A program made the translations under genes and the position numbers. From contig CAVPSB010000014.1 of the NCBI GenBank assembly GCA_963708025.1, forward strand, positions 96,001 to 160,000: DNA of 64,000 nt, written 5' to 3'. Below are positions 60,466 to 64,000 of the stretch, piece by piece. The stretch is from an uncultured Candidatus Rokubacteria bacterium. GTDB lineage: Bacteria; Methylomirabilota; Methylomirabilia; Rokubacteriales; DASRDR01. Below the pieces are notes generated by a model. That model worked only from the letters and a program-made list of their open reading frames with translations, was not told the origin of the DNA and made no database searches. Position 1 is the stretch's first letter; each line of letters starts with the position of its first letter.

Positions 60466-62642
60466 CTAGGCGTAGGGGGCGAGGGCGGTCTGCTGCATGC
60501 CGGTCGCCTCGACCCGCCCGGCGGCGACCTCCGTGGCCAGCCGCTTCAGGAGGGCCCGTCCATCCCGGCTCGACTCGCACACGACCACGAGCCGCTGGAA
60601 GGTGAAGTCGTCGTGCGCCACGTGCAGCAGGTGCTCCGGAGGCCAGCCGTGCCGGATGAAGCGCTCGATGAGCCCCCGCCGCAGCCGCTCGCGCGGGTCG
60701 CCGTCGCGCCAGCGGGCCACGGTGGGGAGGCGTGAGGACAGGAGCTTCCACGCCTCCGCCGGGAGCTCGTCGCCGGCCGCCGCCTTGTAGACGGGATCGA
60801 AGGCGCGGGCCACCAGCGCCTCGGCGCCGGGACCGGCGTTGTCGAACCCGAGGGCCAGCAGATACGCCATCAGCCCGAGACAGGCCGGCCGGTCCAGCGC
60901 CGTCTCGAGCCCCTCGGTCGCTCGCAGCCACACGTCGGCGCCGATCCGCCGCGCCTCGGACGAGTGGGGATCGAGGAGGCTCGCCACCAGGGCCACGGTC
61001 CAGGGGCGGGCCCCGGCGGCCCCGATGAGCCAGTCCGCCACCTCCGCCGGCCGATCCTCGAGCAGCCGCCGCCAGCCGGGGGGCCGCTCGGTGATGTCAG
61101 GGGGCCGCTCCGCGCCGTCCAGCCAGTCGAGGGTGCCGGCGACCGTGAGCGGCTCCGCGCCGCGGGCGGCGACCTCGTGCGTCGCCGCCGCTCCGGCGCG
61201 GGGCATCTCCCTTGACCCGGCCCGCGGCGGCTCGACCCGGACGAGCTTGGGGTCGGGGAAGGGGCCCGTGTCGCGACTGCCCACCAGGGTTCGGGGGGGC
61301 GGCGCGAGCGGGGGCGGGGGCGGGCGGCGGCGGGGGCGCGGCCAGCGAGGGATTGCGCAGCGTGAGCTCGGCGATCAAGCGCGGACTCCGCGCACGGATC
61401 ACCGGCGCATCCGCCGGCCCGAGGGCCTCGGCGAGGCCGCTCAGGATCTCGGCGCCCAGCCGGGTCGGCGGCCCCGCTTCGGCCACGTCCTGCCCGAGCC
61501 GGAGCGCTTCGGGCGGCTGCGTCTTCCACAACACCATCGTCCGCTGCTTGACCCCGAGAGCCTCGGCGTCCAGCCCCGCGTGCTCGGCCGTCGCGGCCAG
61601 GGCTCGGAGCAGGTCGCCTTCCGGGAGCGAGGGGAGCAGGGGCGGCTCCCCGGTCAGCCGGTCGCCGAAGAGCGCTGCCTTCAGGCGGCGGGCCTCGTCC
61701 GGCGCGCGGAACCGCGAGCCGACCGAGTCGACGAGTGCCCCCAGCGGCAGCCGGCCCTGGCGGACCGGCTCGATCTGGGTCGCGATCTCGACGAGGGCCG
61801 GGAAGACCGCCCGCCCGGCGGCCACCTCCTTGCCGAACTCCCACAGGAACTGCCGCACCTGTCCGTCCGACTCGCCCACGAGGTCCCGGGCCGCCTCGTC
61901 GGCCCACGGCGGGATCGCGCCGGATCCCGGCTCCTCGCCCCGGCGGGCGGCGAGGATCACGACGGCCTCGGCGTCCCGATCGCGCTGGAGCTGGCGCCTC
62001 ATGGCGGAAGGGACGACCTGGAGGTCGAAGGGGTCGCCTTCGAGCGCGCGAGGGGTGAGGGCCCACGTGCAGAAGTCGAGCGTCCGCCGGAGCCGCGGCC
62101 AGGCTTGACTCCAGACGGCCAGCACTAGATCTTCCACGCGCTCCGGGCCATCCGCGACGAGCCACGCCGGACCGTCGGCCCGGCCGTAGAGCGCCGCCAG
62201 CACCCGCGCGGCGTCCCGCTCGGAGTACGACCGGGCGGGCGGGCGGCTCGGGGCTGGACGGCGAGGGCGGGAGGATGACCGCCTGGCCGTACGCCTGCCA
62301 GGACTCGCCGCGCCGGGGCCGGCGGAAGAGGGTCCGGAGGCTCGCCAGGTCCGGGATGCGCGCGAGGTCCGTGACGTCGATGAGCAGCGTGTGGGTGAAG
62401 ACGCATCCCGGCCGGTTCAGCTCGGTCGCGAGCCAGGTCCGGGCGAGCGCGTAGGCGCCGGCGCCCGGAACCGCCCAGCCGGTCAGGTAGCTGTCGAAGA
62501 GCCCGGCGGTGGGCGGCCCGGAGATGTCCGTCAGCATCAGGAGGGCTCGCTCGGCCTCGCGCGGGAAATTGCGGGAGGCCGCCAGCAGCCGGTGACCGTC
62601 CGAGTAGCCGTGCAGCGTCTGGTGCAGCTTGACCGCGCTCAG
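60466..62642 (-). CDS. GAP1-N1-domain (GTPase-associated protein 1-like) protein, frameshifts near 62225 and 61300; start uncertain (62642-62695)
   Basis: LHQTLHGYSDGHRLLAAS..LTDISG..SYLTG..YALARTW..RPGCVFTHTLLI; later LAVWSQAWPRLRRTLDFCT. Confidence 0.8.
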
Positions 62643-62691
62643 GTCGGGATCTCCCGCCCGGAGGCCTCGGGTGGGAGGCCGCCGAGCGAAG

Positions 62692-63561
62692 TCAATTGGC
62701 CCAGCCCTTGGTCCCGCCCATCAGCCAGGTCACCGGCGCCGTCAGGTCGTGGGCCCGGCTCTCGTCGCCGACCACGACGATCCGCTCCGCCGGCATCGGC
62801 TTGCTGAGGAGCCGGTCGCCGTCGCGCCCCAGGTCGCCGCCCTGGGCGCTGATCCCGTAGATCCGGGTGGTGTAGCACTCGGGGTTGCCGCGGAGGTGCT
62901 GGTCGAGCAGCGGCAGCCGAGCCGCCAGCCAGGCGGCCGGCGTGGCCGCGCGCGAGGCGACCAGGTCCCAGGCCGACACGACGACGGCGACCCGCACATG
63001 CGGCAGCCCGATCGGCTCCCGGACGAGGAACTGGAGCAGCTCCACGAGCTTCACCTGCGTCGGGGCCCGGTCGGCGTCCCAGGGCGACGGCGCATCATCC
63101 TCGTCGTCGCCGCGGAGCGGGCCGACCTCGGCGACGATCGGCGCCACCTCGTCGATCCCCACCGGCTCGAGGACCGTGCCGGGGTGCACGAACAGGAGAA
63201 CCCCCGACGCCGCCCGCGCCAGCTCGTAGTGCGCGCGGGAGCACCGGCGCTCCTTCCACTGCAGGTTGAACAGCTCACCCGACATGTCGGGGAAGTAGAC
63301 GTCGGTCCGCTCCGTCCCGTCCGTGGACACCAGCTTCATCGACACGATCGTGTCCGACCCGATGGGCGTGCGCTCGACCGGGCGGCACGAGAGCCAGTCG
63401 CTGGAGATCCGGTTGAGGTGTTCCTTGTTGCCGTGGAGTCGATCCAGGCGGAGCGAGGTGGGGACCTCGGCCCAGACGACGAGATACCACAGCGCGGACA
63501 GGAAGGTGGTCTTGCCGCTTCCCGGCAGTCCCAGCACGAGCTGCCTGCTCTCGGGCGGCAT
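62692..63561 (-). CDS. TRAFAC-clade GTPase (double-GTPase type)
   Basis: G1 GLPGSGKTT, G2 ERT, G3 DMSGE, G4-like SAWD, G5 GISAQGG. Confidence 0.85.
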   Translation of the reverse strand: MPPESRQLVLGLPGSGKTTFLSALWYLVVWAEVPTSLRLDRLHGNKEHLNRISSDWLSCRPVERTPIGSDTIVSMKLVSTDGTERTDVYFPDMSGELFNLQWKERRCSRAHYELARAASGVLLFVHPGTVLEPVGIDEVAPIVAEVGPLRGDDEDDAPSPWDADRAPTQVKLVELLQFLVREPIGLPHVRVAVVVSAWDLVASRAATPAAWLAARLPLLDQHLRGNPECYTTRIYGISAQGGDLGRDGDRLLSKPMPAERIVVVGDESRAHDLTAPVTWLMGGTKGWAN

Positions 63562-63717
63562 CGGTCAGTCGGGCCGGGGGGGAGCTACGCGCTCCATCCG
63601 GATCGCCGCGGCGCCTCGGGCCTGCGGCCCTCGGGACGCCGCGTCCCTCCGGTGGCCCGGACCCCCCCTCCGGCTGTCCCGTCGCTCGCGCATCCGTGGC
63701 GACCGCCGCATGGCCTC

Positions 63718-64000
63718 TCAGCCGACCGGTCGCAGGGCAGGGAGCCGCCGCCAGAGGTAACGGTCGAACTCGGAGGCGCTCTCCGGCAAAGGGACCGGGA
63801 CCCGGTGCGCCGGCCCGAAGGCGGGACTGTCCTGGACCCAGGCCGCGAAGAGCTCGGCCAGCCCGTGCGCGAAGCCGAGCGGGCTCCCCGGCACCGGCCG
63901 CGCGGCCACCCGGATGAAGCGGAGCCGCCCGAGTCGCTCCGCGCAGTGCTGCCGCGTCCGCTCGGTGAAGGCCGTGACGAACTGCTCCATCTCGTCGAGC
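63718..64000 (-). CDS. C-terminus of a probable second TRAFAC GTPase (partial, runs off the window)
   Basis: FIRVAARP..HGLAELFAAW resembles a GTPase G5 strand and final helix; position fits a double-GTPase operon. Confidence 0.55.
   Translation of the reverse strand, partial: LDEMEQFVTAFTERTRQHCAERLGRLRFIRVAARPVPGSPLGFAHGLAELFAAWVQDSPAFGPAHRVPVPLPESASEFDRYLWRRLPALRPVG

Follow-up and report, generated by a model that had tools for sequence, protein, structure and literature searches.

A mobile double-GTPase/GAP1 cassette in a Rokubacteria genome that carries a GAAD adaptor without an effector domain

Conflict systems built on two paralogous GTPases (DO-GTPase1 and DO-GTPase2) and a protein of the GAP1-N1 family have been described computationally (Kaur, Burroughs, Iyer, Aravind, eLife 2020, PMC7159879). 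In that account, the GTPase pair is taken to be a dimeric switch on the grounds of paralogy and co-evolution, the coupling of the GTPases to GAP1 is deduced from co-evolution alone, the GTPases have a conserved Walker B glutamate, and one of them is fused to an N-terminal zinc ribbon (PMC7159879). Hundreds of bacterial species carry these systems, all of them predicted, to judge by the 297 relatives found among species representatives. A full-text literature search by family names and Pfam accessions yielded only the 2020 paper, one methods paper, and mentions in passing, and no experiment, as the first-pass annotation of the present DNA had supposed. One such system is located at the end of a stretch of 64,000 nucleotides from an uncultured Candidatus Rokubacteria bacterium (G000:C14:96001-160000; assembly of 8.17 Mb in 49 contigs, 71% G+C, completeness 99.67%), referred to here as the window; the prefix w marks window positions, and positions in locus L001 are window positions minus 60000. 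The best explanation of this locus, held with moderate confidence, is a mobile 6.3 kb double-GTPase/GAP1 cassette that has lost its effector enzyme, has kept the GAAD adaptor, and is maintained in disarmed form under selection, the frame changes in its GAP1 gene being most likely assembly errors.

The first-pass annotation reported three co-oriented minus-strand genes at w60466-64000, and all three are present there, each matched by one of the Pfam models for DO-GTPase2, DO-GTPase1, and GAP1-N1. The E-values of the cassette genes are far beyond chance, each family is single-copy in this genome, and Pfam searches for the same families gave matches in none of 14 control genomes. The partial upstream open reading frame (ORF), rightly said to end like a GTPase, is the C-terminal part of DO-GTPase2 (w63718-64000, minus strand, continuing to w64728, L001 3718-4728; PF19993, E 2.2e-38), of which the longest ORF has 336 codons from an uncertain TTG start, the last 93 (w63718-63999) being inside the window. 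DO-GTPase1 is intact (w62692-63561, minus strand, 289 aa; PF19975, E 6.5e-66, full profile 1-271), with the motifs GLPGSGKT, PDMSGE, SAWD, and SAQGG, all typical of the family; only the claim that it has all G-motifs was slightly too strong, because its G4 is SAWD, not NKxD, as is usual in this family, where 93 of 106 aligned sequences read [IVL]SAWD. Downstream of these two paralogous genes, the N-terminal piece of GAP1 (w62226-62633, minus strand) opens at a GTG (w62631-62633), reads KLHQTLHGYSDGHRLL..., and encodes a GAP1-N1 domain that extends down to about w62240 and covers profile positions 1-100 of 101 (PF20012, E 3.4e-30, 104.8 bits versus a cut-off of 27).

The further components that had been predicted upstream exist past the window edge. 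They are a GASH helical protein of 388 aa (w64903-66069, L001 4903-6069, minus strand; PF19994, E 3e-28), near full length at profile positions 3-394 of 398, and, ending 12 nt upstream of it, a stand-alone GAAD adaptor ORF of 79 codons with a GTG start (w66082-66321, L001 6082-6321, minus strand; PF19976, E 1.4e-15). The annotation had expected GASH together with effector-associated domains (EAD), of which only the GASH was found: in the 10 kb past the window edge there is neither an effector gene nor an EAD but the adaptor alone, and an anti-invader output is thus not evident here. The open stretch of the GAAD frame is just 89 codons long; farther upstream come two stops, 245 nt in which no ORF is credible, and then a permease gene's stop codon. 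There is no second significant GAAD in the genome (next match E 0.6), and neither alignment with homologues nor Pfam finds a domain after GAP1-C at this locus. Of the variable effector that would be fused to GAP1, or coupled to it via EAD1 or GAAD, there is only a GAAD with no effector domain; the catalytic domain of the effector is gone from this locus, and the adaptor alone survives as a separate small protein. A complex prediction for GASH with the GAAD mini-protein scored 0.01 against a mark of 0.32 and, having been run without controls, has no bearing on binding. PADLOC, which the annotation had suggested as a check and which has no model for the DO-GTPase/GAP1 system, returned no matches for five of the six pieces, DO-GTPase2 having weak matches only, to two Csx3 models and mad8 (PADLOC-DB 2.0, E 2.5e-4 to 8e-3).

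The related loci indicate what is missing. Relatives were collected by scanning one genome per species with a GAP1 alignment (297 confirmed, 80 loci kept), and core genes were located in the 80 loci by phmmer with the window's proteins, the two GTPase paralogues cross-hitting. DO-GTPase1 was found in 79 loci, DO-GTPase2 in 77, and GASH in 74, and the genes do co-occur in other genomes as the annotation required: GASH, DO-GTPase2, DO-GTPase1, and GAP1 follow one another in that order on a single strand in 70 of the 80 loci, and the 10 without this order are cut by contig ends or multi-frame. GASH is directly preceded, in 66 of the 74 GASH-bearing loci, by an ORF in the same orientation that is 200 aa or longer and runs up to the GASH start, and 64 of these 66 effector ORFs have a GAAD at the C-terminus according to Pfam. 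At the N-terminus, the 66 ORFs have Metallophos (calcineurin-like metallophosphoesterase) in 47 cases, PNP_UDP_1 in five, TIR/SEFIR in five, and no recognised domain in nine, which agrees with the account of GAAD-joined effectors in the 2020 paper (PMC7159879). The eight exceptions are L006 and L042, in which a Metallophos or Patatin domain is frame-split from the GAAD; L015 and L065, in which the GAAD is in longer frames; three loci cut by contig ends; and L005, which has the GAAD alone.

Two observations on effectors emerged from the same survey. The Patatin-type effector before the GAAD in L042 belongs to a class not listed in section 28 of the 2020 paper (PMC7159879). Nine loci (L056, L057, L061, L062, L067, L071, L076, L082, and L084), mostly of Acidobacteriota with one Nitrospira, encode a GAAD protein of 311-349 aa, the N-terminal ~240 aa of which give no Pfam match that passes the threshold, L082 and L084 showing faint hints of GNAT/FeeM; this domain may constitute an undescribed effector class.

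A GAAD profile was built from the C-termini of 64 effectors, and a short GAAD ORF beginning M-[DE]-[AP]-G-R-R-L-V-Y-R-F-F was found in three other places: L005 of Rokuibacteriota, a GAAD-only cassette beside an RNase PH region; L087, a metagenome contig in which the GAAD ORF is preceded by an unrelated 88-residue extension; and L104, which is ~90% identical to the window in nucleotide sequence and has the same arrangement of permease, GAAD, and GASH. The genomic contexts of L005 and L087 differ from that of the window. Two candidates for effector remnants were rejected: the N-terminal extension of L087 is supported as a GNAT fragment neither by Pfam nor by phmmer against the 66 effector proteins, and a 218-codon in-frame ORF before the GAAD of L005 has an Arg/Gly-rich translation like that of an out-of-frame sequence, with no Pfam match. 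L104 (372-834) and L001 (6082-6559) also differ by two non-coding indels, the permease-GAAD spacer of L104 being shorter by 160 nt and its GAAD-GASH spacer longer by 147 nt.

Pairwise dN/dS of the GAAD ORF is 0.17 with L005, 0.27 with L087, and 0.32 with L104, and that of the core genes is 0.34 for GASH, 0.39 for DO-GTPase2, 0.22 for DO-GTPase1, 0.28 for GAP1-N, and 0.36 for GAP1-M, at dS of 0.7-1.4; rows dropped as spurious alignments were GAP1_C of L005 (37% identity, the contig ending inside GAP1), DO-GTPase2 of L104, and DO-GTPase1 of L004 (43% identity). By these ratios, the cassette is kept under purifying selection in its disarmed form, the GAAD ORF included. In a quick IQ-TREE analysis of 45 GASH sequences, each covered over at least 80% of its length (L104 and L089 were outside this set), the sequences of the window, L005, and L087 group together as a clade (SH-aLRT 100) within a set of effector-bearing systems, a placement that one loss of the effector suffices to explain. 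The nearest sister found is L089 (48% GASH identity), which has a Metallophos-GAAD protein.

The five genes, in the order of transcription GAAD mini-ORF, GASH, DO-GTPase2, DO-GTPase1, GAP1, sit between an ABC permease gene and the gene of its binding protein, on the same strand. Orthologues of the binding protein (81-85% aa identity) were found in seven related genomes, of which three (G012, G011, and G006) were compared, and in all three the orthologues of w58715-60272 and w66591-68374 are only 84-116 nt apart. Because the flanks are adjacent there, w60273-66590 (~6.3 kb, minus strand, the part within the window being w60273-64000) is extra here, and it comprises exactly the five genes. The GAP1-N1 family was found in only one of 60 related genomes (G005 of Rokuibacteriota, which is of the same family as this genome and carries L005); together with the three empty sites and the 297 relatives across many phyla, this amounts to a mobile, sporadic distribution. 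The five genes are a mobile cassette inserted into an ABC transporter locus. No integrase was found, and the two junctions of the insert have no direct repeat of at least 8 nt, only a 9-nt inverted match.

This position between transporter genes raises the alternative that the cassette is a regulator of the host's ABC peptide transporter operon and not a conflict system. The shared strand would suit such a role, as would a promoter-like site (TTGACT, 17-nt spacer, CACAAT; w60384-60412, minus strand) that lies within the insert and faces the binding-protein gene, the start of which is 48 nt downstream of it; this is a consensus match only, one having been found where 0.1 was expected from the consensus scan. 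The site could drive a binding-protein gene now cut off from the permease genes by the insertion. A regulatory role is very improbable, because three related genomes have adjacent transporter genes and no cassette, L005 and L087 hold the same cassette in other contexts, the 297 relatives of GAP1 are scattered over many phyla, and no consistent linkage of the cassette to ABC transporter operons was seen across genomes.

The GAP1 gene needs separate consideration. The protein of roughly 720 aa that the annotation had proposed is real, but it is not encoded by a single ORF: the gene occupies three frames, separated by two +1 changes that are both in low-complexity linkers. The first change is in a gccc-gccc-gccc linker (w62222-62250, minus strand) and the second in a Pro/Ala-rich linker with a run of seven C (w61288-61320, minus strand), both placed by alignment with homologues. 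The middle piece of 308 codons (w61298-62221, minus strand), an alpha/beta domain (GAP1-M) followed by a helical region according to homologues and an AF2 model, has a weak match to PF20014 (E 0.037, below the cut-off) and homologous regions in 106 related loci. The C-terminal piece of 273 codons (w60466-61287, minus strand, stop w60466-60468), placed in the third frame by tblastn with intact homologues, has homologous regions in 86 related loci and no Pfam match, which is normal for the family, nine typical GAP1-N1 proteins likewise matching Pfam in N1 only. A search with the middle piece gave ten intact homologues (687-774 aa, all with PF20012), which by tblastn are collinear with the three frames over residues ~1-136, ~103-491, and ~454-745; GAP1 thus has three globular parts, N, M, and C. 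The pieces have no internal stops and are 42-71% identical to the intact homologues.

Frame junctions were scanned genome-wide with a codon-usage score trained on 749 long ORFs, a junction being a place where the coding signal ends more than 25 codons before the stop of its frame and coding resumes within 75 nt in a different frame of that strand. Both GAP1 sites are picked up by the scan, which yields 439 junctions with scores of at least 50 (363 of +1 versus 76 of -1), or 828 with scores of at least 25 (653 versus 175), and this one-sided excess of +1 indicates a systematic assembly error rather than gene decay. In Logan contigs of runs X1, X2, and X4 (from three studies, 95-99% alike), there is one base fewer at w62228-62247, the first site; at the second, one contig of a fourth run (X3, record 13) has a net 28 letters fewer, which is -1 modulo 3. 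With hundreds of +1 shifts in the assembly and an extra base that related contigs lack, the GAP1 frame changes are quite likely to be artefacts. More generally, the hundreds of apparent +1 errors mean that split genes in this assembly are not callable as pseudogenes without reads. Eight more junctions occur in w1-80000, near w992, w12435, w14975, w26929, w31068, w33191, w43581, and w55176. Effector/GAAD, GAP1, or GTPase genes are frame-split in other genomes as well (L006 4472-5847, L042 3758-6002, and core genes of L012, L074, L037, and L076).

DO-GTPase2 departs from its family in the Walker B region. Although the motifs GPPDSGKT and TKWD are present, the sequence at Walker B is TEIPGD, with Asp in place of Glu, and in L005 it is AEVASD; the remaining 65 of 67 aligned sequences end in GE. 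The Walker B glutamate is thus present in DO-GTPase1 (PDMSGE) and replaced in DO-GTPase2 of precisely the effector-less clade. A zinc ribbon of the form C..C..G.C[LV]EG..CPH is visible in many DO-GTPase2 proteins, and at least two Cys occur in the 75 residues before the P-loop in 63 of 107 sequences; the window's frame has one Cys there versus four in L005, which has the zinc ribbon. A further frame change may be present between w64730 and w64900, ahead of DO-GTPase2; blastn of the N-terminal region of L005 DO-GTPase2 against the window found no alignable zinc-ribbon region.

These features could also be those of a dead remnant, in which a toxic effector was deleted, GAP1 was truly frameshifted twice, and the genes are drifting to loss. 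The missing effector domain, a GAP1 spread over three frames, a DO-GTPase2 without the conserved Walker B glutamate, and a zinc ribbon that is not demonstrable in the DO-GTPase2 of the window are all as expected of a remnant. Such decay is nevertheless unlikely, because the effector-less form is common to lineages at dS of 0.7-1.4 with dN/dS of 0.17-0.39 in every gene, even the 79-codon GAAD; the genes of L005 are each in a single open frame as far as the contig extends; the GAP1 pieces are stop-free at 42-71% identity to intact homologues; +1 junctions number in the hundreds in this assembly; and the extra base at the first site is absent from related contigs.

Several points weigh against a disarmed but selected cassette with an artefactually split GAP1. 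Effector loss together with two GAP1 frame changes also fits a decaying system, and the loss of the Walker B glutamate from DO-GTPase2 here and in L005 could mean relaxed constraint. Two shifts in one gene of 2.2 kb compare with an expectation of only ~0.12-0.22 per gene. The extra base is missing in contigs of other strains (95-99% alike), not of this one, and G/C runs of at least six are not over-represented at the frame junctions (5% versus 3%) and hence offer no mechanism for the error. The pairwise dN/dS values come from three relatives that are not mutually independent, and the GASH tree was the product of a quick search only. Finally, the term conflict system is itself a prediction for the whole family, anti-invader action included (PMC7159879).

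Predicted structures suggest how GAP1 may engage its GTPases. The AF2 model of GAP1-N1 (from an alignment of 105 sequences; pLDDT 89.8) has the topology beta-beta-alpha-beta-beta-beta-alpha-alpha (E2-10, E14-19, H25-35, E48-55, E60-68, E78-86, H87-92, H96-102). When it was compared by VIA-align with 48,161 chains, the top matches were all longin domains of GTPase regulators: the best was an Asgard Roadblock-Longin protein (8yqg_B; Z 10.7, rmsd 3.4, 122 aligned), followed by Lst4 (4zy8_C; Z 9.1), GATOR1 (Z 8.7), C9orf72-SMCR8 (Z 8.2), the SEA complex (Z 8.1), and FLCN-FNIP2 (Z 7.9), with DENND1A, TRAPP, VAMP7, roadblock, MglB/MglC, Mon1-Ccz1, and TagF lower down. Foldseek agreed weakly, listing longins at E 0.008-0.03 with probability up to 1.00; against PDB it gave no match at E of 0.001 or below for the model of N1 or of the middle piece. 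On the strength of this model, GAP1-N1 is predicted to fold as a longin domain, of the longin/roadblock fold. The words longin and roadblock are absent from the main text of the eLife paper (PMC7159879); a 2026 preprint from the same laboratory (10.64898/2026.10.19.760177) mentions, from unpublished observations, profilin-longin-like domains alongside the GTPases of other anti-selfish-element systems.

The model of the 308-residue middle piece (pLDDT 93) has as its best long matches the DENN cores of DENND1A (181-320, Z 6.5), FLCN (362-540, Z 6.3), DENND1B (Z 6.1), and the FLCN GAP complex (Z 5.9); these Z scores of 5.9-6.5 are below the tool's caution line of 8, and an NB-ARC domain (P-loop-like) reaches Z 7.1 over 94 residues, which also counts against the likeness. 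DENN matches by Foldseek are not significant (E 0.26-0.30, probability 0.57-0.87). The DENN-like domain follows the longin domain in GAP1, in the same order as in those DENN proteins, and the modelled domain after GAP1-N1 weakly resembles DENN. GAP1 may even be a bacterial longin-DENN module truly related to FLCN, C9orf72, and the DENN regulators, making DO-GTPase/GAP1 a prokaryotic counterpart of those and the Rokuibacteriota cassette a domesticated, non-suicidal GTPase switch instead of a broken defence, but such kinship is at present a speculative proposal that is more doubtful than not.

In GAP1-N1, the residues G9, Y10, G13, H14, D36, Y49, W67, A69, R74, C77, T80, and P106 are invariant among the 105 sequences, R74 being between strands E60-68 and E78-86 in the model. 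A further alternative is a complete, working defence system that has its output without a GAAD-linked enzyme, through GAP1 itself (invariant His14, Asp36, and Cys77), through GASH, or through an untagged host factor. In its favour, H14, D36, and C77 are invariant and H8 and H81 nearly so, all five genes are under purifying selection, and the cassette occurs in three different genomic contexts and so spreads in this form. It is still harder to credit than decay, because the longin fold of N1 is a non-enzymatic, GTPase-binding platform, with no hydrolase fold among the matches, and because the same invariant residues are found in effector-bearing systems and hence are no replacement for an effector.

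A mechanism can be proposed on the basis of a disarmed cassette. The two paralogous GTPases would form a nucleotide-dependent (dimeric) switch on which GAP1 docks via its N-terminal longin domain, which may continue into a DENN-like domain. GAP1 would be both regulator (GAP or GEF) and sensor, tuning hydrolysis or exchange, perhaps via Arg74. In canonical systems, an effector enzyme, most often a metallophosphoesterase and otherwise a PNP-type phosphorylase or TIR/SEFIR domain, would be held on the GASH/GAP1 complex via its C-terminal GAAD and freed or activated when the switch flips. In the present clade, the cargo would be gone, and the complex would still assemble, sense, and switch with no recognisable killing output.

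An effector-less version that is under selection in three genomic contexts separates the core of sensor and switch from the toxic output. Assembly and GTPase regulation can be studied on it in non-toxic form, and it is a test case for how systems of the abortive-infection type become disarmed or repurposed. The stand-alone GAAD ORF is a simple handle for finding the adaptor's binding partners, and the predicted longin fold of GAP1-N1 with its invariant arginine offers a concrete, falsifiable mechanism for the coupling of the GTPases to GAP1.

The surroundings of the cassette are as follows. Of the two flanking genes, neither of which is part of the system, one encodes a peptide-type ABC substrate-binding protein (w58708-60336, minus strand; an ORF with orthologues in seven genomes) and the other an OppC-like ABC permease (minus strand, stop at w66596-66598, L001 6596; PF00528, E 8.5e-27, and PF12911, E 1.2e-7). 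Right after the permease stop, at the upstream edge of the insert, there is a G7-TCTTCCGAGA-C8 inverted repeat (w66560-66590, L001 6560-6590) that may be a terminator or an insertion scar. Farther along (w68531-72435, L001 8531-12435) are ordinary housekeeping neighbours, a gene for a MiaB-like radical-SAM/TRAM protein on the minus strand and one for a flavin oxidoreductase of the Old-Yellow-Enzyme type on the plus strand. On the other side, at w54644-55933 on the minus strand, overlapping ORFs of 204, 206, and 157 aa, with a frame junction at about w55176 in the codon scan, have beginnings that we take to be transposase-like (MYLRHTTRVKDGKTHTYWRLV...), and a broken or mis-assembled IS element is the probable identity of this region.

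Judged by sequence, the locus belongs to the GAP1-N1 DO-GTPase systems in every core feature and departs from them in the effector and in the Walker B region of DO-GTPase2. With the systems of Kaur et al. (PMC7159879), it shares GAP1-N1, two paralogous DO-GTPases, GASH, and GAAD, as well as the tight co-oriented gene order, the sporadic mobile distribution, and the lack of a link to multicellular habit. It differs in that the GAAD stands alone in 79 codons, whereas in the published description GAAD and effector form one polypeptide; in that DO-GTPase2 lacks the conserved Walker B glutamate and a demonstrable zinc ribbon; and in its host phylum, Rokuibacteriota, which is not among the most common phyla in the paper (PMC7159879). 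The canonical five-gene form with a metallophosphoesterase (for example L007, L012, and L014) has the same four core genes in the same order, the GASH proteins of L006, L007, and L012 being 40-41% identical to the one here; directly upstream of GASH, it has a Metallophos-GAAD protein of 430-470 aa, of which only the last 79 codons are represented in the present cassette.

Beyond conflict systems, the predicted fold of GAP1-N1 is like that of the eukaryotic longin-DENN regulators (FLCN-FNIP, C9orf72-SMCR8, GATOR1 Nprl2/3, and DENND1) and of Asgard Roadblock-Longin proteins (Z 7.2-10.7). The domain that follows is more weakly alike (DENND1A Z 6.5, FLCN Z 6.3), in the same N-to-C order. Both would be dedicated partners of GTPase pairs, the role of GAP or GEF being a prediction in the case of GAP1; sequence identity is only 6-11% and homology no more than a possibility, and in place of Rag, Rab, or Arf the GTPase partners here are DO-GTPases. 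The MglA-MglB pair, a Ras-like GTPase with a Roadblock GAP, likewise combines a prokaryotic GTPase with a longin/roadblock partner (MglB Z 5.3, MglC Z 5.4), but MglB is a small single-domain dimer that scores far below the longin matches, and the role of MglAB is in polarity and motility.

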